In this document: positions 15,997 to 58,600 of the stretch, piece after piece
Numbering within the stretch: position 1 is the stretch's first letter
Layout of the letters: each line of letters opens with the position of its first letter
Source: Acidimicrobiia bacterium
GTDB lineage: Bacteria > Actinomycetota > Acidimicrobiia > Acidimicrobiales > Aldehydirespiratoraceae
DNA length: 64,000 nucleotides
Reading direction: 5' to 3'
NCBI GenBank assembly: GCA_003231645.1
Contig: QIIW01000066.1
Location: 4,094-68,093, forward strand
Translations under genes and position numbers: made by a program
The notes under the pieces: model-generated
Database searches by the model: none
Seen by the model: the letters and a program-made list of their open reading frames with translations, nothing else
What the model was told of the DNA's origin: nothing

Positions 15997-18450
15997 TCAG
16001 ATCCCGGGGTGGCCGAGTGCGACCACCCAGACGGTACCGAGAGCAAATGAGGCGACGACCATGGCCGCGGTGACCAACGACTCGTGCCGCGCCAGGAGCT
16101 GCAGGATCCGGCGGGGTCCCGGCGTGGCGCCCGCCCACTCGCGGGTTCGACGGGCGGCGGTGGGGATGGTGGAGAGGCGGAGGCGTGCACCGAAGGAGTT
16201 GGTGAGCACGAGGGTGACCGAGGTGATCATGGCGATCATGGCCCAGATCGGGCCGACGATTCCGGTGACGGCCAGGGGCACGCCGATGCCGTTGAACGCC
16301 AATGCCATGGCGAGGTTCTGTTTGGTTTTCGTGTAGCTGCTGGTGGCGATGTCACGGGCCTCGGCGATGCTGTTGATCCTGCCGCTGACCAGGACGATGT
16401 CGCTGGATTCGATGGCGATGTCGGTTCCGGCACCGATGGCCATTCCGATGTCCGCCTGGGTGAGTGCCGGCGCGTCGTTGATTCCGTCCCCGACCATCAG
16501 CACGCGTAGCCCGACATGTTGGAGCGAGCGCACGACCCTGGACTTGTCCTGGGGTAGGAGCTCGGCGCGGACGTCCTCGATGCCGACGGCGCCGGCCACG
16601 GCCTCGGCGGTGCGCCGGTTGTCGCCGGTGACCATGATCGGGGTGATGCCGGCGAGTCGTAGACGTTCGATGCCTTGTCTCGCGTCGGGTTTGATCTCGT
16701 CGGCTATGCCGATCAACCCGAGCAAGTGCCCGTCGGCGGCGACCGCGATCACGGTCTGGGCGGTGTCCTCCATCGTTCGTCGTTCGGCGCTCACGGCGTC
16801 GGTCGGGATACCGGCCGCGGCGATCCAGTCGGGCCTGCCGACCAGAACCTGCCGACCACCGACAACGGCGGTGACGCCCAGGCCGGTCTGTGACGAGAAT
16901 TCCGCGGCGGTGGCGACGGGCAGATCTCTCTTGAACGCCGCGGCCACGACGGCACGGCCGAGGGGATGCTCGGATGGTTGCTCGGCTGCGGCCGCGGTCG
17001 CGAGGACTTCTTCCTCGCGACAACCGGAAACGGTGACGATTCGCACCACCGACGGTCGGCCGGCGGTGATGGTGCCGGTCTTGTCGAGCAGCACCCGTCG
17101 GATCTCGCCGAAGACCTGGAACGCCTCGCCGGAGCGCATGAGGATTCCGCGCTCGGCGGCCATGCCGCCGCCGCGCATCATGGCCAGCGGCGTGGCCATA
17201 CCGAGGGCGCACGGGTAACCCATGACGAGAACGGCCAGTGTGGCGAATGTCGCGGTTGCGACGTCGGGGGACCCTCCGGTGAACACCGGGCCGACGATCC
17301 AGATCGTCAGGGCCGATCCGGCGACAGCGAGAACTCCCGGGACGTAGTACTTGAGGATCCGGTCGAGAAGTTGAATGATCCCGGGTTTGAGGGCGCGGGC
17401 TTCTTCGATGTGGCGGGCGACCTGGGCCAGGAACGAGTCCTCGCCGACCTTGGTCACCTCGAAGACCAGGGTTCCGGTCTGGTTGACCGATCCGCCGATG
17501 ACCTCGGCGCCATGGGCCTTCGCGGCCGGGACGGGCTCGCCGGTGACCATGGCCTCGTCCACCGTCGAATGGCCCGACACGACACGACCGTCGAGCGGCA
17601 CCCGCTCCCCGGGACGTACCCGAACCCGGTCGCCGACGGCCACCTCTTCGACCGCGATCTCGAACTCGGTTCCGTCACGAACAACGAGAGCGGTGTCGGG
17701 CTGAAGGTCGAGGAGGCGTTGCACGGATTGCGACGACCGCGTGCGAACCAGCGTGGAGGCGTAGCCCGAAAGCAGATGGTAGGTCGATATGAACACCGCG
17801 ACCGAAAGGAAATCGCCTGGGGGGAACGTTCCCGGCGCGACGAACAATCCCAGGAGGCCGCCGAAGAGGCCGCCGAACGCGCCGGCTTCGAGCAGCACAT
17901 GCTGGTTCAGGATCCCGCGACGAAGCGAAGCCCACGCCATCCGGAGAATCGGTTGGGCGGCCACGAACATGGTGGCCACCGCGAGACCCAGGATCAGCCA
18001 CGGGCCGAACAGGAACGTCTCGCCTCCCCACGTGATGCTCAACGGCCGTCCGAACCAGGAGAACGACATCAGGACCAACGTGATCACCGTGAAGCCGGCC
18101 CCGGCCGAGAACCGGTTGCGTTCCTCTCGTAACTCTGCCTCTTCGTCCTCGTAGCCCTGCACCTTGCGGGGATCTCGCACGATGTAGCCGATGTCGCGAA
18201 GGGTTTTCACGATTCCCGACGGGGTGATCCGGTCAGGGTCGTACTCGACCAGACCCTCCGAGTGTGCCAACGAAACCGACACCGCCTCGACGCCATCACG
18301 ACGGGTCAAAGCTTTCTCGATCGTCCCCACACAGAATGAACAGTGCAAGCCACCCAGCTTGACCTGTAGATGCGCCAGACCGTCGTCATCGAGCCGCGGT
18401 GACCCGTCCAACCAGCCATCACGTGGTGAGGCCTCAGTCGTCTCGGTCAT
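15997..18450 (-). CDS. P1B-type heavy-metal-translocating ATPase with non-canonical transmembrane metal motifs
   Basis: N-terminal HMA domain ([17 protein letters not shown]), TGEPVP, DKTGTIT, SEHPL and [10 protein letters not shown]. The TM motif is [11 protein letters not shown] rather than CPC. The start is trimmed to ATG 18450 ([13 protein letters not shown]). Confidence 0.9.
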
Positions 18451-26664: not shown

Positions 26665-28998
26665 TCAACCCACGGGGTTCACTCGTCTGGGATCGAGGAA
26701 GTGTGCGGCGAGCTTTTGGTGGCCGACCGAGGTGTGGCAGTGTCGGGCGATCTCGTCCGACGCTCGGCATGCATCGTCGGAGATCCTCTCGGGATCGGCC
26801 GGCCGGCCGTAGCGCAGCACCGTCACGGCTCGAACGAGTTCGTGGACCCCGGGAATCTGTCGCGGCCACTCGGTCGCGATCCGTCGCTCGAACTCGAGTG
26901 GCGTCTCATGGCTCTCGTAGACGATGCCGAGAAGAGCCAGCGACGACACCGCGTCGTCGAATGCCAGCTCGGCTCGTGCCAACGGAACGCCGGAGACTCG
27001 TCTGTCCAGACGGCGACGACGAACGGTCCTCACGGCCGGAACCGCGAGGAGTGCGGCCGCCATCAGGACGACGATCCTCAGCGCTGACGGGATGCTGCCC
27101 CCGGATCCGTCGGACGGCCGGGTGGAACCGGTTGCGATGTCCGGCTGGGCCGGAACCTTCAAACCGGACAGATCACTCCCGGGGTCGGGGCCGTCGCCGG
27201 CCGCTCTCACGCGGCTGGTGGTGGGTGCAGTGTCGGTGGAGTTGAAAACCTGGCGGTTGGCGTCGTCGTTGACCCCAAATTGGGCCTCCTGCAGACCGGT
27301 GATGTCGGAGTCACGGGGGCGGGCCCGCCCGGGTGTCGGGTCGAAGGCGACCCAGCCGGCGCCGGCGAAGTAGACCTCGGGCCAGGCGTGGGCGTTGCGC
27401 CCGCGAACCACGTATACGCCTCTCGCCTCGTCCCAGTCACCCCAGGTGAAGCCGACCGCCACCCGAGTCGGGATACCGAGCGAACGGGCCATGGCGGCGA
27501 AGGTGGCGGCGAACTGCTCGCAATAGCCTCGGCGGGTCACGAAGAGGAAGTCCTCGACATCGGCGACGTTCTCACTGAGGGCGACATTGAGGTCGTATGT
27601 GAACAGATCGGGGTTGAGAAAGTAGTTCTGGAGCATCAGCGCGCGTTGGTAGTCGGTGGCGGCACCGGCGGTGATCCGGCGGGCCAGGGTGGAGACCGAC
27701 GACGGCCAGCACCGGTCGGTGGTCGGTGATTCGTTGTCGCGGCAGGCCGGTGGGAGCGCGGTGTTCTCGGCCACGAACGCGGGATCGAGGCCGGCCGTGG
27801 CGTCGGCCGGAAGGTCGGCCGGAAGGTAGTCGGGAACGGACGATTTGATCGTGTAGGTGAACCCCGCCTCCGCCTTGTCCTTGTCCTTGCTCTTGACCAC
27901 GAGAGCCCCGGTGGCCTTCTCGTATTCGAGTTCGATCCCACCGGAATCGATCACGGAGGAGACCTCGTAGGCGGCCGGTAGGTAGATGTTGCCGAGACGC
28001 CGGGTGGTGATGGTCTGGGTGATCGATCTGCGCTTCACCGACGGGTCGACGTCGGACCCGACCGGTCCGCGGATGTCGTCGAACTTCGATGACCGACGCC
28101 ACACGTTGCCGTCGAATGAATTGAGTGCCATCAACCGCCAGTAGTCCTTGTCGGCCTTGTCGACGGCGACGGAGAAGATCTCGAAGTTGGACTGTTTGAC
28201 CAGCGATGTGGAAATCTCGACGAGGGGGCTGATGACCGTGCGCGACTGGGGTCCGCCGGTGAGTTCGCGGAAATCGACGAGCGGGGCGCTCCGGGCGCCG
28301 GGGAGCAATGGTCCGACCAGGATTCCGGCGAGCACCGCCACGGCGGCAGCGGTGCCGCCGACGCGAAGGGTGGTGGAGATGCCGCGACCCGATCCACCGG
28401 CCGCCCACGCCTCCTCGCGCGCCTGACGTTCGGCCCGGAGCGTGAGCAACACGGCCCCGACCGCCGCGGCGAAGATGGCGCCATGGGCGAGTCCGTTGTG
28501 GCCAACACCCATCAGAGCACCAAAGACGAATACCGAGGTGGCCGGCAACACGGCTTCGATCGGGGACTTGAGTCTGAACGCGGCCCAGTCGGAGAGAAAG
28601 CCGAGCCACCAGCCGAACATTGCCAGCACCGCGACAAACCCCCTGACCGCGTCGACCGGCGCCGACTGATCGGTATAGATGCCCCAGGCCGCGGCGAGGT
28701 CGGTTCCCAGCGAGTCGAGTGTGGCGATGGTCGGGAAAAAGGCGCGTGCGGTGTCGGGGTAGATCACCGTGGTGAAGACGACGACGAAAGCGACTGCACT
28801 CACGAGTGCCGACAGTGGGGTGCTCAGACCGGAACGCCGCGTGGCGGCGGAGATCACGTGGGAAGCGACGACGATGATGATGACGCGGCCGAGATACGAG
28901 GTGTCGACGAACAGTCGCTCGAGACTGACCATCACCGCGATCGACAGTCCGGTGAGGGCGACTTCGGCCGCGAGCAAAGACGCCTGCTTCGGGTTCAT
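26665..28998 (-). CDS. transglutaminase-domain membrane protein (TgpA-like: N-terminal polytopic domain + transglutaminase core + DUF4129-like tail)
   Basis: Cys-His-Asp core region: RRGYCEQFAATFAAMARSLGIPTRVAVGF...GRNAHAWPEVYF...WVAFDPT. There are multiple N-terminal TM helices. The start is trimmed to ATG 28998 (ATGA overlap with the DUF58 stop). Confidence 0.85.
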   Translation of the reverse strand: MNPKQASLLAAEVALTGLSIAVMVSLERLFVDTSYLGRVIIIVVASHVISAATRRSGLSTPLSALVSAVAFVVVFTTVIYPDTARAFFPTIATLDSLGTDLAAAWGIYTDQSAPVDAVRGFVAVLAMFGWWLGFLSDWAAFRLKSPIEAVLPATSVFVFGALMGVGHNGLAHGAIFAAAVGAVLLTLRAERQAREEAWAAGGSGRGISTTLRVGGTAAAVAVLAGILVGPLLPGARSAPLVDFRELTGGPQSRTVISPLVEISTSLVKQSNFEIFSVAVDKADKDYWRLMALNSFDGNVWRRSSKFDDIRGPVGSDVDPSVKRRSITQTITTRRLGNIYLPAAYEVSSVIDSGGIELEYEKATGALVVKSKDKDKAEAGFTYTIKSSVPDYLPADLPADATAGLDPAFVAENTALPPACRDNESPTTDRCWPSSVSTLARRITAGAATDYQRALMLQNYFLNPDLFTYDLNVALSENVADVEDFLFVTRRGYCEQFAATFAAMARSLGIPTRVAVGFTWGDWDEARGVYVVRGRNAHAWPEVYFAGAGWVAFDPTPGRARPRDSDITGLQEAQFGVNDDANRQVFNSTDTAPTTSRVRAAGDGPDPGSDLSGLKVPAQPDIATGSTRPSDGSGGSIPSALRIVVLMAAALLAVPAVRTVRRRRLDRRVSGVPLARAELAFDDAVSSLALLGIVYESHETPLEFERRIATEWPRQIPGVHELVRAVTVLRYGRPADPERISDDACRASDEIARHCHTSVGHQKLAAHFLDPRRVNPVG

Positions 28999-32466: not shown

Positions 32467-33164
32467 CCGGGCTCCCAGACCCGTCGAATCGTCCGCACTC
32501 CTCGTGGAGGGTCTCCACCGAGATCGATACGGCCGAGGCCCTGCACCAACTCGACGAACCGGCTGAGGCGGTTCGCACCGTCCGGGTGATGCAATCCACC
32601 GGGCCGGCGATCGTGTTGGGGAGTTCGCAGCCGGAATCCGATGTCGACCTTGCCGTCGCCACCGGTCTCGGTTTCGGCGTCGCGAGGCGACGCAGCGGCG
32701 GTGGCGCCGTGCTGGTGGTGCCGGGCGAGCACGTGTGGGTCGATCTGCTGATTCCGCGCCGCGACCCTCTCTGGGATGACGACATAGTGAGGGCCGCGAA
32801 CTGGGCGGGGGAGGCCTGGCTCGTCGCGCTTGGTTCGGTGGGCCTGACGGATGCGGTGATCCACCGGGGACGTCTGATCAGTACGGAGTGGTCGTCGCTG
32901 GTCTGTTTCGCCGGCATCGGCCCGGGCGAGATCGTCGTGGCCGGCCAGAAGGTCATGGGGCTGAGTCAGCGTCGTACCCGGGACTGGATTCGGATCCAGT
33001 CGCTGGTGCACACGAAATGGCGCCCGGACCTCCTGGTCGAGTCGCTGGCGCTCGAGTCGCCGCGGCGTCGACGATGCCTCTCGCAGGTGCGACGAGCCGC
33101 TGCGGCCGTCGAGGTGGGCAGCGATCTGCTCGTCCGGTCGTTGTTGGCGGCCCTGCCCGACTGA
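32463..33164 (+). CDS. biotin/lipoate A/B protein ligase family protein (LplA/LipB-like catalytic domain)
   Basis: IVLGSSQPESDV...RRRSGGGAVLVVPGEHVWVDLLI...GQKVMGLSQRR resembles the BPL_LplA_LipB fold (RRxSGGGAV and K-containing GxK motifs). The start is trimmed to GTG 32463. Confidence 0.65.
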   Translation: MTGLPDPSNRPHSSWRVSTEIDTAEALHQLDEPAEAVRTVRVMQSTGPAIVLGSSQPESDVDLAVATGLGFGVARRRSGGGAVLVVPGEHVWVDLLIPRRDPLWDDDIVRAANWAGEAWLVALGSVGLTDAVIHRGRLISTEWSSLVCFAGIGPGEIVVAGQKVMGLSQRRTRDWIRIQSLVHTKWRPDLLVESLALESPRRRRCLSQVRRAAAAVEVGSDLLVRSLLAALPD

Positions 33165-33262
33165 GCCGCTTCGACCCAACCGGCCGCGGCGAGTGCGATT
33201 GAGGGTGCGTGTCGTCACGAGACGCGAGATTCGTGACGAACACCTGTTCGGTCGCGCTCAAA

Positions 33263-33330
33263 GTGGAGATATTGGTTGCCTCAGTGGGGAAAATAGGGTA
33301 GAAGTGGAGCGAATAGGAGTATCTAGGAGC
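33263..33330 (+). promoter_or_regulatory. candidate MraZ operator: AGTGGRG direct repeats with roughly 10-bp GG periodicity
   Basis: AAAGTGGAG (33260-33268), TCAGTGGGG (33281-33289) and GAAGTGGAG (33301-33309) are spaced 21 and 20 nt apart. Weaker TTGG, TAGGG, TAGGAG and TAGGAG elements are interleaved about every 10 nt. The array sits in a locally AT-richer stretch 70-135 nt upstream of mraZ. Confidence 0.5.
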
Positions 33331-33396
33331 GCTTCGGGAATGTCAGGTGGGCATCGGGGTCCACGGTGGTCGGTTTCGAGAGAGAAGGGGGTGGAG

Positions 33397-33834
33397 ATGG
33401 CGAGATTCGTGGGAGCCCACGAATACAGACTGGACGGCCAGGGCCGCCTGATTCTTCCGGCGTCGTTTCGGGCCCAACTGGCCGCCGGCGCCTACATAAC
33501 CGCTCTCGACAACTGCCTCGCCCTCATGCCGAACGAAGAGTTCGAGGAGATGTCCGACCGCCTCGAGGCCCACATTGGCACCGGTGAGGTTCACGCCGAT
33601 GCCTACCGTGAGTTCACCAGTCTCGCTGCCGACGTGAGCCCCGACAACCAGGGTCGAATCCGCATCAAGCCGGAGCACCTCGAGGCGGCAGGGCTCATCC
33701 GCAACGTGGTCGTGGTCGGCGTCGGCAAGCGAGCTGAGATCTGGGACCAGGCGCGCTGGAAGTCCAGACGGTCGAGCCGTTCGGAAAAGCTCGCCGACGC
33801 CATCGAACGAGGCTTCGGCATCGGCACGGTCTGA
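33397..33834 (+). CDS. mraZ: transcriptional regulator MraZ
   Basis: MARFVGAHEYRLDGQGRLILPASFR plus a second half-domain DNQGRIRIKPEHL (two DXXXR motifs). The RBS GAAGGGGGTGGAG sits upstream of ATG 33397. Confidence 0.92.
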   Translation: MARFVGAHEYRLDGQGRLILPASFRAQLAAGAYITALDNCLALMPNEEFEEMSDRLEAHIGTGEVHADAYREFTSLAADVSPDNQGRIRIKPEHLEAAGLIRNVVVVGVGKRAEIWDQARWKSRRSSRSEKLADAIERGFGIGTV

Positions 33835-33934
33835 GCACACATCGCCTGACACATCACACCTCCCGCAATCCCACAGTCCCCGATTACACCAGACGAAAGG
33901 ACCAACCACCGGATCAACGGCCGAATCGAACCGA

Positions 33935-34047
33935 TCATCTGCAGTCTTCCGATCAGCAAATGGAAGACCCGTACTCCGCCCGCTTGCCATTAGCCCGATC
34001 GGGGGACAAATCCCGACGAGCGTCGCCGATCGGAGGACTGCAGATGA
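33935..34047 (+). ncRNA. structured RNA element in the mraZ-rsmH spacer (candidate mraW RNA motif / cis-regulatory or processing element)
   Basis: A 20-bp closing stem pairs 33935-33954 (tcatctgcagtcttccgatc) with 34028-34047 (gatcggaggactgcagatga): 19 Watson-Crick pairs plus 1 G-U. Inner helices are 33956-63/33987-94 and the hairpin 34000-34015. It lies 25 nt upstream of the rsmH GTG. Confidence 0.5.
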
Positions 34048-34071
34048 GCGGGAAATCGACCGCATCGATCG

Positions 34072-35070
34072 GTGATCCACACGATGCCAGCCGCCGGCCA
34101 CCCACCGAACCAAGACGAAACGCCCTCCGATGTGAGTGGGTTCGTACACGAACCTGTGATGGTGCGGGAGGTCGTGGAGGTCCTCTCCCATGTCCCGGAG
34201 GGCGTGGTGGTCGATGCGACGCTCGGCGGTGCCGGTCACTCGGAGGCGCTGCTCGCCGCCAACGATCAGATCTCGATCATCGGGCTCGATCGCGACGACA
34301 CGGCACTCGCGGCTGCCCGGATCCGGCTTGCCCCCCACGAGGATCGGGTCAGCCTCCATCACTGCCGCTTCGACTCGATGGGTGAGGTCGTTCGTTCGCT
34401 GGGCCATCGACACGTCTCGGGGTGTCTCTTCGATCTGGGAGTCAGCTCCCCGCAGCTCGATCATTTCGACCGCGGATTCAGCTTCCGCAATGACGGCCCG
34501 CTCGACATGCGCATGGATCGCAGCCAGGGCCGGACCGCCGCCGATGTCGTCAACGGCTACGACGAGGGCTCACTCGTCGACATACTTCGTCGCCACGGGG
34601 ATGAACCGCATGCTCGCCGAATCGCCTCGGCGATCGTCGCGGCGCGCCCCCTTTCCTCCACTGCCGAGCTGGCCGAGGTCGTGCGTCAAGCCGTCCCCGC
34701 GCCAGCGAGGCGGCGGGGAGGACACCCGGCGCGCCGCTCCTTCCAGGCCATCAGGATCGAGGTCAACGAAGAACTCTCGATCCTGGCCGACGCGCTGGGT
34801 CAGGCCATCGATCTGCTCGGTCCGGCGGGCAGGTGTGCGGTCTTGGCGTACCACTCCGGCGAGGATCGCATCGTCAAGCGCACCTTTCGTGATGCCGCGG
34901 GCGAGGTACCGCCACCGCGCCCCGATCTGCCCCGGCCTCCCGGCACGCTGGCCGAGGTTCGATTGCTGTGGCGGGGTGCCCACAGGCCCTCGGCCGACGA
35001 AGTTGCCCGCAATCCTCGGTCCGAGGCGGCCAGGTTCCGTGCCGTCGAGAAGCTCGGCCGGGTGGCGTGA
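34072..35070 (+). CDS. rsmH: 16S rRNA (cytosine1402-N4)-methyltransferase
   Basis: HEPVMVREVVEVL, DATLGGAGHSEALL, FDLGVSSPQLD and SGEDRIVK. The start is GTG 34072 or ATG 34084. Confidence 0.92.
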   Translation: MIHTMPAAGHPPNQDETPSDVSGFVHEPVMVREVVEVLSHVPEGVVVDATLGGAGHSEALLAANDQISIIGLDRDDTALAAARIRLAPHEDRVSLHHCRFDSMGEVVRSLGHRHVSGCLFDLGVSSPQLDHFDRGFSFRNDGPLDMRMDRSQGRTAADVVNGYDEGSLVDILRRHGDEPHARRIASAIVAARPLSSTAELAEVVRQAVPAPARRRGGHPARRSFQAIRIEVNEELSILADALGQAIDLLGPAGRCAVLAYHSGEDRIVKRTFRDAAGEVPPPRPDLPRPPGTLAEVRLLWRGAHRPSADEVARNPRSEAARFRAVEKLGRVA

Positions 35071-35483
35071 TGGCCGCAGTGACTCCGGCCCCCAGGCCCC
35101 GCACCTCACCGGCCACGGCTCGAAAGAGTGCCGAACTCAGGGTGGTCAGGGTCAACAACCGTGTACGGACGGTCGGCACCCTCGGCACCATCGTGGGGTC
35201 CTTCATGTTTCTGCTGCTGTTCATGCTTGCCGGCCTCCACGCCGTTCTCGTACAGACCCAGGCCACACTCGACTCCGTCGACGCCGAGATCTCGTCGCTG
35301 CAGGTTCAGCGAAACGAGGCGCTGGCCCAGCTCGCGTGGCACGATTCCCCCGACGGTCTGGCCGAGGCAGCCTCCAAAGCCGGCCTGGCCCTCGCCACCG
35401 ATGTCGAAACGCTTGCCCCCGTGGTGGAGGGTGACCTCATGCCGCCGGCCCGACCCGACCCGTTCGCCGGGGTGGTCGGGTGA
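35070..35483 (+). CDS. ftsL: cell division protein FtsL-like (single-pass membrane, coiled coil)
   Basis: It occupies the position between rsmH and ftsI. It has one TM helix (LGTIVGSFMFLLLFMLAGLHAVLV) followed by a coiled-coil segment. The ATG overlaps the rsmH TGA by 1 nt. Confidence 0.6.
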   Translation: MAAVTPAPRPRTSPATARKSAELRVVRVNNRVRTVGTLGTIVGSFMFLLLFMLAGLHAVLVQTQATLDSVDAEISSLQVQRNEALAQLAWHDSPDGLAEAASKAGLALATDVETLAPVVEGDLMPPARPDPFAGVVG

Positions 35484-37297
35484 GCGCCGTGAAGCGCCCG
35501 ACCACGAAGACACGAAAAGTCAGAGCTGTCCGACCGCATGTGGGAAGGGGCCGCGTCGTCGTCGTCGGCATCGTATCGGGGCTGGTGCTGGCCGGATTCA
35601 TGTGGCGGCTCGTCGATTTGCAACTGATGCCCGATCCGGAGCTGGCCTCGGGGATGGGCACCCGCATCGTCGAGCGATCGATTCGGGCACCCCGGGGTGA
35701 GATCCTCGATCGCCACGGCCGCCCGATGGCCCTCTCGCTTCCCGCCCCGACCGTGATCGCAGACCCCCGGCTGGTGCCCGCGGCACGTGTGCCCCAAATC
35801 GTCGCGGAACTCAGCCCCCTGCTTTCCACTTCCCCCGACGTATTGACTCGCCGCCTCAGCGGTGACGGCTACTTCGCCTACCTGGAACGACAGGTCGATC
35901 TCGACGTTGGAAAGAAGGTCGACGCCCTGGATCTTCCCGGAATCTCCACGATCGAGGAATCGCGGCGTGACCACCCCAATGGCGACTGTTCGGGTATCGC
36001 CGTGGTCGGCCGGGTCGACGTGGACAACAACGGGATCAGCGGGCTCGAGGAGCAGTACAACCGATCACTCATCGGCATCGACGGCCAGGTGTTCAGCGAA
36101 TCGAGCGCCAACGGTCGAAACACCATCCCGGGCGGTACCCGGGTGGTTGACGCCGCCCGGCCCGGGAGCGACCTCACCCTCACCCTCGACCGCAACATCC
36201 AGTTCCAGGCCGAGAAGCTGCTCACCGATGCGGTCGTCAAGACCGGCGGTGATCTCGGGATCATCATCATCACGGTGCCGACCACCGGTGAGATCGTCGC
36301 CATGGCCAATGTGAAACGGAACAAGACCACCGGCGAAGTCGGATGCACCACCACCAATCTCGGGGCGATCTGGACCTACGAACCCGGATCGGTGATGAAG
36401 CCGTTCACCGTGTCGAGCCTCATCGAAGGCAATCCCGCGCTCGCGTCGGAGCCGATCGAGGTTCCGTACTCGATCACCCGCGACGACGGAGCCTCGGGAA
36501 AGGTGTTCCGGGACTACTGGGTGCATGACACCGAACAGATGTCGCTCACGGACATAATCTCGAAGTCATCGAATGTAGGTGCGATTCTCGTCGGCGAGAA
36601 GGTGGGCCCCGATCAACTCCACAGCACGCTCGTCGACATGGGTTTCGGTAGTCGCACCGCACTCGGTTTCAAGGGTGAGGCCAGTGGCATCCTGAACAGG
36701 CTCGACATTAATTCTCTCGCCCTCGCCAACGTGTCGATTGGTCAGGGCATAGCGGTCTCGCCGTTGCAACTGATCAGCGCATACAACACCTTCGCGAACG
36801 GGGGCATCCAACCCGACCCGGTCATCGTGATGGACGATGCAGGGGGAGCGGGGCGACGAGTCCTCAGCTCCACCTCGGCCGAAAGGGTGCTCTCCATGAT
36901 ACGACAGGTCGTGGTCGACGGAACCGGTACCAGGGCCGCGATCCCCGGCTATGACGTAGCGGGCAAGACCGGCACCGCGTGGCAGCCGTGCTCGGTCGAG
37001 TTCGGTTACCTCTGCCAAGGCGGCGGTCGACACTACTCGGCCACGTTCGCGGGAATTGTGAGCAACGACAAGGGCCCGGCCCTCTCGGCCGTGGTCATCA
37101 TCGACAACCCCCAGAAGGCCCTCGGCCCGTACGCCGGCGGTTCGGTGTCGGCCCCGATCTTCAAGGAGATCGTCTCCTACGCGCTGCGCCAGTTGCGGGT
37201 CGCACCGGTTGGCGACCCCGGCGTCCCCCAGGACCGTGTGCGGGCTCAGCCGGCCACCCAGCCGATCGTGCCCACTCCCACCCAGGCCGCGTCGTGA
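35480..37297 (+). CDS. ftsI: class B penicillin-binding protein / peptidoglycan D,D-transpeptidase
   Basis: An N-terminal TM anchor, then SVMKPFT (SxxK), SSN and KTGTA motifs. There is a GTGA overlap with ftsL. Confidence 0.9.
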   Translation: MSAVKRPTTKTRKVRAVRPHVGRGRVVVVGIVSGLVLAGFMWRLVDLQLMPDPELASGMGTRIVERSIRAPRGEILDRHGRPMALSLPAPTVIADPRLVPAARVPQIVAELSPLLSTSPDVLTRRLSGDGYFAYLERQVDLDVGKKVDALDLPGISTIEESRRDHPNGDCSGIAVVGRVDVDNNGISGLEEQYNRSLIGIDGQVFSESSANGRNTIPGGTRVVDAARPGSDLTLTLDRNIQFQAEKLLTDAVVKTGGDLGIIIITVPTTGEIVAMANVKRNKTTGEVGCTTTNLGAIWTYEPGSVMKPFTVSSLIEGNPALASEPIEVPYSITRDDGASGKVFRDYWVHDTEQMSLTDIISKSSNVGAILVGEKVGPDQLHSTLVDMGFGSRTALGFKGEASGILNRLDINSLALANVSIGQGIAVSPLQLISAYNTFANGGIQPDPVIVMDDAGGAGRRVLSSTSAERVLSMIRQVVVDGTGTRAAIPGYDVAGKTGTAWQPCSVEFGYLCQGGGRHYSATFAGIVSNDKGPALSAVVIIDNPQKALGPYAGGSVSAPIFKEIVSYALRQLRVAPVGDPGVPQDRVRAQPATQPIVPTPTQAAS

Positions 37298-55693: not shown

Positions 55694-58600
55694 ATGGGCA
55701 ATTCCTTCACCCATCTCCATGTCCACACCGAGTATTCAATGCTCGACGGAGCGTCGCGCCTCGCGGACGTGATCGCCGCCGCCGCGTCGGATGGCCAGCC
55801 CGCCCTCGGCATCACCGACCACGGCAACATGTACGGGGTGCTCGACTTCTACCGCGGGTGCAACGACGCCGGTATCAAGCCGATCATCGGCACCGAGGCC
55901 TACATGGCCCATGACTCGCGGTTCGAACGGCCGAGTCGGCGGGGCAGGATCGACGATTCGGGTGGCGATACCGACGGTGGGAGGAAGCTGTACTACCACC
56001 TGACGCTGCTGGCCGAGAACAATGTCGGATACAAGAATCTGATTCAGCTCGCCAGCCGGGCCTTCATGGAGGGCTATTACTACAAACCCCGGGTTGACTG
56101 GGAGATTCTGGCCGAACATTCCGAGGGCCTGATCGCCACCACCGGTTGTCTCGGTGGACACGTGCTCCAGTCGCTGGTCCACGGCGATGAGCGAGCGGCC
56201 CTGGAGAAGGCGGCGCGTCTCCAGGAGATCTTCGGGCGCGACAACCTGTTCGTCGAGCTCCAGGACCACGGCATCCCGGAACAACACCGGACCAACCCCA
56301 AACTGCTCGAGATCGCCAAGTCGATCAGCGCTCCGCTGCTCGCCACCAACGACAGCCACTACACCCACCAGAGCGATTCACAGGCCCACGACGCTCTGCT
56401 CTGTGTGCAGACCGGCTCTCTGTTGAGTGACACCGACCGCTTCAAGTTCCACGGTGATCAGCACTACCTGAAGTCGGCCGGTGAGATGAGGCGACTTTTC
56501 GCCGAGGTCGAATCGGCCTGCGACAATTCCCTGTGGATAGCGGAACGCGCCGATGTCACCATCGAGTTCGGCAAACCGCAGCTTCCCGAGTTTCCGCTTC
56601 CCGAGGGCTTCGGGTCCGATCGCGACTATCTGCTTCACCTCACCATGGAGGGTGCCGGCGAGAGGTGGGGCGACCCGCTGCCCGATGCCGTGCTCGAACG
56701 CCTGGCCTACGAACTCGATGTCATCAACAGCATGGGATTCGCCTCGTATTTCATTATCACGTGGGACCTCATCAAGTACGCCCGAGACCACGGCATTCGC
56801 GTGGGTCCGGGCCGTGGTTCAGCCGCCGGATGCGCGGTCGCCTACACGCTGCGGATCACCGATCTCGACCCCATCGAGTACGACCTTCTCTTCGAACGCT
56901 TCCTCAACCCGGCGCGCGTGTCCATGCCCGACATCGACATGGACTTCGACACCAGATTTCGCGACGAGATGATCCGCTACGCAGCATCCCGTTACGGCCG
57001 CGACAACGTGGCCCAGATCATCACCTTCAGCCAGATCAAGGCCCGGGCCGCGGTGCGCGACGCGGCCCGCGTGCTCGGGTATCCCTACGCGATGGGCGAC
57101 CGTGTGGCCAAGGCCATGCCTCCACTGGTGATGGGCCGTGACACCCCGCTGCGCTACTGCTTCGAGCAGGATCTGAAATACGCCGACGGCTACAAGGCAG
57201 CCGGTGAGTTGCGCGACATGGCAGCGAGTGACGCCGACGTGGCAAGGGTGGTGGAGGTGGCGCGTGGGCTGGAGGGACTTCGTCGCCAGGACGGCATCCA
57301 CGCTGCGGCCGTGGTGATCACCAAGGAGCCGCTCACCGAATACATGCCGATTCAGCGCAAGCCCGAATCCGGCAAGGACATCAGCGAGGTCCCGGTCGTC
57401 ACCCAGTACGAGATGCACGGCGTCGAGGATCTCGGCCTGCTCAAGATGGATTTCCTGGGGCTGCGAAACCTCGACGTCATCAGTGACTGCCTGGAGTTGG
57501 TCAAGTCCACTCGAGGGATCGATCTCGACATCGATTCTGTTCCTCTCGACGATGTGCCGACCTTCGAGCTGCTCAGACGGGGCGACACCATCGGAGTGTT
57601 CCAGCTCGAGTCGGGGCCGATGCGGGCCCTCATACGTTCGTTGGCCCCCACGTCGTTCGACGATGTGGCGGCTCTCGTGGCGCTCTATCGGCCCGGCCCG
57701 ATGAACGCCAACATGCACAACGACTATGCCGACCGCAAGAACGGCCGCAAGCCGATCGAGGTTTTCCATGAGGACGCCAGAGAGCTCCTGGCCGACACCT
57801 ACGGACTGATGATCTATCAGGAATCGGTCATGCGGGTCGCCCAGAAGTTCGCCGGCTACTCGCTCGCCCAGGCCGATTCGCTCCGCAAGGCCTGCGGCAA
57901 GAAGGACCGCGAGATCATGGCCATGGAACGAGCCGGATTCGTCCAGGGATGTCGCGACCAGGGCTACGGCGAGAAACTCGGCACGAAACTGTTCGATGTC
58001 ATCGAGAAGTTCGCCGACTACGCGTTCAACAAGAGTCACTCGTTCGGCTACGGATACGTGGCCTACCAGATCGCCTATCTGAAGGCCAACTTCCCGGTCG
58101 AGTACTTCTCGGCCCTGCTCACCAGTGTGAAGGGCAAGCTCGAGACCGCGGCCGTGTATCTCAACGAGTGCCGGGTGATGGGTATCGAGGTGCAGGTCCC
58201 CGACATCAACCGGTCCGACTCCGACTTCACCCCGTTGCCGAACCAGGACGAGGAATCCGAATCGCTCGGCCGGATCGTGTTCGGGCTGTCGGCAGTGCGC
58301 AACGTCGGCGTGGGTTTCGTGGCCCGGATAGTCGACGAGCGCAACGCCAACGGTCCTTTCGATTCGTTCAACGATTTCGTCGAGCGGGTCGATCTCGAGG
58401 CGCTCAACAAACGCACCATCGAGTCGCTGATCAAAGCGGGCACCTTCGATTCGCTCGGCCCCCCCCGCAAGGGACTTCTCCAGGTCTTCGAGCAGATCGT
58501 CGACCTCACGACGAAACGTCGGCGCGAGCACGACATGGGGGTCATGTCGTTGTTCGGCGACGTCGATGAGGCCCCGACCTTCGAGGAGCGCCCGTCGATC

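Follow-up and report, generated by a model that had tools for sequence, protein, structure and literature searches.

A conserved RNA structure upstream of rsmH (mraW) has already been described in one part of the Actinomycetota. The mraW RNA motif (Rfam family RF01746), an orphan cis-regulatory RNA since 2010, heads the most conserved bacterial cluster of cell-division and cell-wall genes. It was defined as a hairpin without branches, made up of three stems and ending in a CUUCCCC loop, and it is always followed by mraW, a membrane protein gene, ftsI, and mur genes (PMC2864571 Additional file 1); its internal loops are poorly conserved (PMC2864571), and its taxonomic range is the Actinomycetales (PMC2864571 Table 1). 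The element considered here lies in the mraZ-rsmH spacer of a 64,000-nucleotide stretch of contig QIIW01000066.1 (the window, taken at its full length) from a bacterium of the class Acidimicrobiia. The gene order in the window is the operon order given for mraW-motif operons (PMC2864571 Additional file 1). The element departs from the published motif in being a three-way junction, each helix of which is supported by covariation, in the sequence of its C-rich apical loop (ACCCGUACUCCGCCCG in the window, ACUCCGCCCGCU in the family, and CUCUUCGCCC in a variant subgroup, as opposed to CUUCCCC), and in its taxonomic distribution, the closest RsmH proteins and all 80 loci compared being from Acidimicrobiales/Acidimicrobiia assemblies. 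It is very probably a conserved, cis-encoded structured RNA of the sense strand that is characteristic of the class Acidimicrobiia. It is also, apparently, an undescribed RNA motif: no description of it was found in the literature that was searched, and no family of Rfam release 15 matches it.

Structure and conservation of the element

In the window, positions 33935-33954 (TCATCTGCAGTCTTCCGATC) pair with 34028-34047 (GATCGGAGGACTGCAGATGA) through 19 Watson-Crick pairs and one G-U pair (T33947-G34035). A search for this 20-mer and its reverse complement, with up to three mismatches allowed, found only these two sites in 64 kb, where 0.00 were expected from shuffled sequences. The arms lengthen to 33931-57 and 34025-51 (27 nt, 89% complementary), giving a helix, P1, with a predicted duplex energy in the window of −47.5 kcal/mol by itself, and in the minimum free energy (MFE) fold bases 33911-33930 can pair with 34063-34078, extending P1 outward. 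The 113-nt fold has an MFE of −57.5 kcal/mol and a z-score of −7.08, and none of 200 shuffled sequences was as stable. Both the 20-bp stem proposed in the initial annotation and its small hairpin at 34000-04/34011-15, which is conserved and corresponds to helix P3, are therefore borne out by these results. The remaining helix proposed there, 33956-63/33987-94, was correct in part: its inner five pairs (33959-63/33987-91) covary and continue as 33964-66/33983-85 in the hairpin designated P2, but its outer pairs (33956-57/33993-94) have no consensus support, and bases 33956-57 pair with 34025-26 in an extension of P1. The GGAGG (34032-36) and the ATG that follows it after 7 nt (34044) are, as had been noted, within the 3′ arm of the stem and out of frame with rsmH. 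No tRNA-like structure or tmRNA was found.

The homologues of RsmH place the window in the Acidimicrobiales, and the element was compared across 80 rsmH loci, one per Acidimicrobiia species, in each of which mraZ was located. A long mraZ-rsmH spacer, which the initial annotation had regarded as unusual, proved to be the rule in this class, and nearly all such loci hold a helix of 12-31 bp enclosing 65-80 nt. The core of this helix reads GCAGUCYYCCGR...YCGGRRGACUGC across the relatives, and changes in its outer part are compensatory (for example, UCAUCUGCAG/CUGCAGAUGA, UCAUCGGCAG/CUGCCGAUGA, and CUCUUCAGCAG/CUGCUGAAGAG). An alignment of 42 elements from genome sequences (A2) was the basis of a consensus. 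It has 28 pairs in P1, a C-rich P2 loop of 13-16 nt containing the near-invariant ACUCCGCCCGCU, and a P3 hairpin that is interrupted by an internal loop and capped by GAGAMAU. In this alignment 93.2% of the cells at proposed pairs are paired, as compared with 35-46% when the partners are slid by 1-3 columns, and double-sided changes are present in 35 of 46 pairs; none of 500 shuffles reached the observed values. The loci with the element, 59 of the 80, were each matched once by a covariance model, R1, and in every case the match lies between mraZ and rsmH. The scores of R1 range from 54 to 138 bits on the sense strand but only from 22 to 52 bits on the antisense strand at the same coordinates. 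The median P1 duplex energy is −58 kcal/mol, and P1 is retained in the MFE folds of all 122 elements that were folded.

Conservation was also assessed by a scan of metagenomes with a pattern consisting of the two loops only (ACTCCGCCCGCT N10-28 GGGASAMAWCC), in which neither P1 nor gene context was used. At least 120 contigs matched, and all figures for the scan are among the matches listed. An rsmH gene lies downstream on the same strand in 104 of the 105 contigs with 350 nt or more of downstream sequence, and mraZ lies upstream in 107 of the 108 contigs with room for it; the sole exception matched by chance within the gene for a sensor protein, where no helix surrounds it. R1 matches 98 of the first 100 contigs. 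In an alignment of 98 metagenome sequences chosen by the loop pattern alone (A5), 92.4% of the cells are paired, as compared with 35-50% in slid controls, compensatory changes are found in 39 of the 46 pairs, and almost all of the column pairs highest in mutual information are pairs of the proposed structure. When the two alignments are taken separately, about 94-95% of the cells in the 28 consensus pairs of P1 are paired, with compensatory changes in 25-26 of these pairs. Cells containing G-U outnumber those containing A-C by 390 to 131, which indicates that the structure is that of a sense-strand RNA. Mutual information in A5 revealed no extra helix, and no conserved complement to the invariant P2 loop, as would be present in a pseudoknot, was found in the 90-nt flanks. 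The compensatory changes for which the spacers of relatives were to be searched are thus abundant, and the proposal of a conserved multi-helix sense-strand RNA 5′ of rsmH in a lineage of the Actinomycetota is upheld by the covariation.

Several features of the distribution merit separate mention. A variant subgroup (L008, L009, L010, L025, L040, L054, and L055; element at about 2310-2515) has CCCCCCUCUUCGCCC as its P2 loop and GCGCCAYCCYCCG as its P1 core. Abutting or overlapping mraZ and rsmH genes, with no match to the element, are found in about a quarter of the species loci, mostly of Ilumatobacteraceae/Ilumatobacter (L017, L019, L026, L030, L038, L043, L058, L060, L062, L065-L067, L069, L072, L077, and L080, with rsmH at about 2501), and it is to Ilumatobacteraceae that most of the loci without the element belong. 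The absence from Ilumatobacteraceae-type loci looks like a lineage-specific loss, and these lineages provide a natural comparison for studies of function. Two public records of metagenome-assembled genomes titled "Bifidobacterium breve" contain an Acidimicrobiia-type rsmH together with the element (L070:2341-2467, 115.7 bits, and L074:2310-2437, 98.6 bits); these bins are probably mislabeled or contaminated.

Relation to the start of rsmH and possible functions

The start codon of rsmH in the window is likelier to be ATG 34084 than GTG 34072, since database protein P0001, 328 amino acids long, is 100% identical to the window RsmH from that ATG, the ATG is kept in an alignment with the relatives L001, L003, and L005, and an SD-like (Shine-Dalgarno-like) sequence, GGTGATC, precedes it. 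This sequence is complementary to the 3′ end of 16S rRNA. The spacer between mraZ and rsmH is therefore 249 nt long; the 237 nt given in the initial annotation is the correct count to GTG 34072, and the accompanying statement that rsmH has no obvious SD arose from the use of the wrong start codon.

The element is close to the start of rsmH in most lineages. In 141 loci, the median distance from the end of the element to the first conserved RsmH codon is 63 nt, and the distance to the RsmH core is less than 90 nt in 78%, less than 30 nt in 25%, and more than 120 nt in 7%, so that in most lineages P1 either contains the start codon of rsmH or is separated from it by no more than a few tens of nucleotides. 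In roughly a quarter to a third of lineages, it is the P1 3′ arm itself that contains both the SD and the AUG of rsmH. Among 58 loci, 17 have no AUG in the 3′ arm, 19 have one that shares the reading frame of rsmH, and 22, the window among them, have one in another frame; of the variant subgroup, L008, L009, L054, and L055 have an in-frame start codon in the arm, L010 and L025 have one in another frame, and none was detected in L040. In the window, where the AUG of the arm opens an out-of-frame open reading frame (ORF) of 114 codons that overlaps rsmH, the SD at 34071-77 and AUG 34084 are located 20-33 nt past P1. In the predicted fold both are paired with the 5′ flank, the SD with 33911-15 in the outer extension of P1. 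On average, the SD region is unpaired in the window fold with a probability of 0.32 and the AUG with one of 0.05, and the MFE folds of the window, L001, L003, and L005 all pair the true SD region with the 5′ flank. More generally, the 35-nt flanks outside P1 pair better with their own partners than with permuted ones (−20.4 versus −16.1 kcal/mol; Wilcoxon p = 2e-6). Two other interpretations of sequences in the 3′ arm were considered and rejected: a conserved leader peptide starting at its AUG, because the frame varies among the loci (19/22/17) and the positions covary as helix pairs, and a ribozyme core represented by the hammerhead-like CUGAUGA of some arms, because this string is paired and covarying.

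Taken as a whole, the element is best explained, with moderate confidence, as a conserved branched RNA that would control the expression of rsmH post-transcriptionally. A more tentative proposal is that this control is exerted on the start region of rsmH, with or without processing of the RNA. In such a mechanism the expression of rsmH, and probably also that of the ftsL-like, ftsI, and mur genes, would be set by the element after transcription: the start of rsmH would be kept within a long duplex, or beside it, by the very stable P1 and its lineage-specific outward extension, and release or tuning would need a trans-acting event. Such an event might be the cutting of this duplex by an RNase III-type enzyme or the recognition of the invariant loops by a putative factor. 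The structure, its strand, its conservation, its single copy, and its link to rsmH are shown, whereas occlusion at the start codon in the window, processing, and a trans-acting factor are inferences.

Some observations weigh against this explanation. The invariant loops would not be accounted for by occlusion or by RNase III alone. The outer helix over the true SD in the window is only modestly better than permuted controls (−17.2 versus −14.8 kcal/mol). In about 7% of loci the element is separated from the first conserved RsmH codon by over 120 nt, and L007, L012, L016, L021, and L049 have about 150-260 nt of unconserved sequence between it and the rsmH start downstream, so that the start region cannot be directly occluded in every locus. 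In addition, when R1 was applied in a reverse test to true mraW sites, it scored them at 15-25 bits, equally on both strands, which is the behavior of a generic match to a long hairpin, so that homology with the mraW motif is not shown in that way.

A purely RNA processing or stability element, in which an RNase III site would part mraZ from the rsmH and cell-wall mRNA, or a structured end would protect it, with no role in translation, appears unlikely. A duplex of about 20 bp, or two helical turns, is what RNase III needs in a substrate, and P1 is a near-perfect duplex of this length or more, with 20 uninterrupted pairs in the window and 12-31 in relatives, made longer by the flanks; the element is also kept where rsmH starts about 150-260 nt downstream. 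The literature on the mraW motif would, by analogy, fit either processing or a structured 5′ end: in Corynebacterium glutamicum the 5′ end that has been assigned to mraW falls within the 3′ arm of the hairpin, 16 nt short of the 3′ end of the motif (PMC3890552), in Corynebacterium diphtheriae the motif is upstream of the mapped start (PMC5784534), and RNase III degrades mraZ mRNA in C. glutamicum according to the account of Maeda 2016 given in PMC5014011. Processing alone, however, leaves unexplained the invariant loops of the three-way junction, the short distance (less than 90 nt in 78% of loci) between the element and the RsmH core, and the presence of the start codon inside P1 in many loci.

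A riboswitch, in which the junction would bind a small molecule such as an S-adenosylmethionine-related compound or a cell-wall precursor and control rsmH and the cell-wall genes, is improbable. Although conserved loops and junction nucleotides, a three-way junction, and a single gene family downstream are what such an RNA would have, P1 is far too stable to switch plausibly and is present in all MFE folds, with no alternative pairing. No intrinsic terminator was found in 33100-34300, the sequence after P1 being GAGCGGGAAAUCGACC. It is the stability of P1 and the lack of a terminator that make a classical riboswitch unlikely. The single gene context and the lack of a match to any Rfam riboswitch family also argue against it, and for the related mraW motif no ligand has become known since 2010 (PMC5640933).

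Hardly more credible is the possibility that the element is an operator that mimics rRNA. Some rRNA methyltransferase genes, such as ermC and ksgA, are autoregulated through their own mRNA, and ribosomal-protein leaders mimic rRNA; the element resembles these systems in fronting the gene for a 16S rRNA methyltransferase. The P2 loop, (G)UAC-UCCGCCCGCU, resembles positions 1393-1407 of 16S rRNA, which read GUACACACCGCCCGUC and hold C1402, the base methylated by RsmH. The similarity consists of a 7-mer and flanking bases; it should be recognized that the comparison was made after the fact and that the chance probability of the 7-mer match is about 0.1 by a rough estimate. In this scheme UAC-UCCGCCCGCU would imitate the rRNA segment, free RsmH, or a factor associated with the immature 30S subunit, would recognize its own mRNA, and helix 45 may have a mimic in the P3 hairpin (GGGGAGAAAUCCC). 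However, the resemblance to 16S rRNA is lost in the variant subgroup (CUUCGCCC) and in the mraW motif (CUUCCCC), and RsmH is reported to act on assembled 30S subunits. If it were true, ribosome maturation would be coupled to rsmH and the downstream cell-division and cell-wall genes, and the extra branch of the Acidimicrobiia element would give a first view of how RNAs of the long-orphan mraW motif class are bound.

Less probable still is a trans-acting small RNA, cut from the mraZ-rsmH transcript or separately transcribed, whose C-rich loop would act on G-rich SD-like targets as does that of 6C RNA. The invariant apical loop is indeed C-rich, cutting of the long closing helix could free a stable RNA of about 100 nt, and the region of the mraW motif in C. 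glutamicum has been recovered in a small-RNA library (PMC4046766). Nevertheless, the position beside rsmH is strictly retained in the metagenome scan, among the matches listed, and no promoter or terminator was found around the element on the + strand.

It is very improbable that the element is a true member of the Rfam mraW family, as the initial annotation had suggested. In favor of membership are its location directly upstream of rsmH (mraW), with a membrane protein gene and ftsI downstream, its similar size (about 110-130 nt), its pyrimidine-rich 5′ and purine-rich 3′ helix strands, and its C-rich apical loop. But no Rfam release 15 family matched in the whole window at the gathering score (50 bits for RF01746), and a search of 33250-34250 at E ≤ 10 gave three chance matches, none of them mraW; RF01746 was similarly without a match in 20 relatives and, at E ≤ 10, in 11 variant loci. 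These negative results are meaningful, since the positive controls, Mycobacterium koreense and Rhodococcus (L082), were detected by RF01746 at 72 and 69.9 bits, respectively, at sites that follow the mraZ stop codon directly. Searching in the reverse direction with R1 likewise gave no strand-specific similarity. The element is not a member of RF01746, because it is not detected by the model, is branched, does not have the defining loop, and occurs in another taxon.

The reading of the element as a dispersed repeat (a miniature inverted-repeat transposable element or a repetitive extragenic palindrome) or as a DNA-level inverted-repeat operator, for which the long, nearly perfect inverted repeat might be cited, is for practical purposes refuted, since no second copy was found in the 64-kb window by pattern search, BLAST, or covariance model, each relative locus has one copy, the scan ties it, among the matches listed, to a single intergenic site between mraZ and rsmH, and the single copy, the covariation of the inner helices P2 and P3, the strand asymmetry of the scores, and the excess of G-U over A-C are those of a transcribed RNA structure.

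Features of the locus

The coordinates of the element, its substructures, and the surrounding genes are collected in Table 1. A 138-amino acid ORF without a Pfam match precedes the ftsI-type gene, in the position of FtsL.

Table 1. Features of the mraZ-rsmH region of the window, and loci of relatives with a distant element
Feature	Coordinates	Strand	Basis and remarks
Whole conserved RNA element	33928..34054	+	Covariance model R1: 108.4 bits, E = 2e-22 on + strand; 37.3 bits on − strand
P1 5′ arm, pyrimidine-rich core GCAGUCUUCCGAUC	33931..33957	+	Inverted repeat and consensus
P1 3′ arm, purine-rich, with SD-like GGAGG 34032-36 and AUG 34044-46	34025..34051	+	Inverted repeat
P2 hairpin	33959..33991	+	33959-66 with 33983-91, G33986 bulged; covarying pairs
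P2 apical loop ACCCGUACUCCGCCCG, holding near-invariant ACUCCGCCCG(CU)	33967..33982	+	Invariant columns of alignment A2
P3 hairpin	33993..34021	+	Lower stem 33993-97/34017-21; upper stem 33999-34003/34012-16
P3 loop GGACAAAU	34004..34011	+	Family consensus GAGAMAU
mraZ coding sequence (145 amino acids)	33397..33834	+	PF02381 MraZ, E = 9e-24; stop TGA 33832-34
Upstream part of spacer, C/A-rich, sequence unconserved	33835..33930	+	Composition
GGTGATC, likely rsmH Shine-Dalgarno sequence	34071..34077	+	Sequence and alignment of relatives; 6 nt before ATG 34084
rsmH (mraW) coding sequence, 328 amino acids	34084..35070	+	PF01795, E = 6.7e-99; start ATG 34084
ftsI-type penicillin-binding protein gene	35480..37297	+	PF00905 and PF03717
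Distant-element loci	L007:2246-2512, L012:2196-2500, L016:2251-2500, L021:2305-2506, L049:2278-2500		

Several observations concern the annotation of genes around the element. Long ORFs run across it, out of frame over mraZ and rsmH (33960-34385 on the + strand, 141 amino acids; 33343-34464 on the − strand, 373 amino acids); they are of a spurious type that is typical of high-GC DNA and could mislead gene callers. The called lengths of RsmH in relatives range from 303 to 440 amino acids, and four of the distant-element loci (L007, L016, L021, and L049) share an rsmH start that encodes MAGES/MAGG. In the M. koreense locus, the called rsmH (L081:2407-3618, 403 amino acids) starts inside mraZ and spans the whole mraW motif (2436-2539); the start has probably been called too far upstream owing to the structured spacer.

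Near the start of mraZ there are short direct repeats at 33112-33123/33345-33356 and 33224-33235/33400-33411 (AGGTGGGCAnCG; GCGAGATTCGTG exact) and a GTGG-rich tract at 33340-33396 with several GGTGG-type boxes just upstream of or at the mraZ start. The repeats and boxes may be MraZ operator repeats or chance matches. Tandem repeats elsewhere in the window, at 27802-27827, 16250-16301, and 58395-58456 (periods of 12, 27, and 24; 2.0-2.4 copies), are unrelated to the element.

Comparison with known RNA systems

The element has features in common with other known RNAs. The leaders of E. coli rnc and pnp are RNase III-processed hairpins in which cleavage of the duplex alters downstream stability or translation. 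These leaders, and the Actino-pnp motif RF01688 (listed in PMC2864571), resemble the element in having a long near-perfect duplex in a leader or intercistronic region but differ in that they are without a conserved three-way junction and invariant loops, and none of them matches the element in Rfam. The 6C RNA (PMC5014011) shares with it conserved C-rich hairpin loops, occurrence in the Actinomycetota, and, through the phenotypes of 6C, a link to cell division; it is, however, the product of an independent small-RNA gene with two C-rich loops and a different position, and it has no Rfam match here.

The comparison with the mraW motif is closer and gives the element most of its significance. 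With more than 150 examples and very strong covariation, the element is a class-wide Acidimicrobiia counterpart of that motif, branched where the motif is unbranched, and it extends this class of regulatory RNA beyond the Actinomycetales to a group that is abundant in soil, freshwater, marine, and wastewater samples and that includes Microthrix. Its two invariant loops and three-way junction provide more handles for finding a binding partner, and the location of the rsmH start codon inside a long helix in many lineages makes the mechanism directly testable. A new Rfam family, or a clan with RF01746, is merited and would improve the annotation of thousands of metagenome-assembled genomes.

Both RNAs are found just downstream of mraZ and upstream of rsmH, with a membrane protein gene, ftsI, and mur genes following, and both are about 105-130 nt long, dominated by a long helix, and found in the same phylum, the Actinomycetota. 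The 5′ strand of the helix is pyrimidine-rich (GGCCUCUGCCCG in mraW and GCAGUCUCCCGG in the element), its 3′ strand is purine-rich (CGGACAGGGACC and CCGGGGGACUGC, respectively), and each has a conserved C-rich apical loop, CUUCCCC in mraW and CUCCGCCC or CUUCGCCC in the element. They differ in that the element adds the P3 hairpin with its GAGAMAU loop, a three-way junction, and a longer invariant loop, and in that it is found in the Acidimicrobiia whereas mraW is found in the Actinomycetales. It is plausible that the loops form a series, from CUUCCCC of mraW through CUUCGCCC of the variant subgroup to CUCCGCCC of the main type. On the basis of position and resemblance, the element is probably a branched, diverged counterpart of the mraW motif, and the resemblance makes a common descent of the two plausible.

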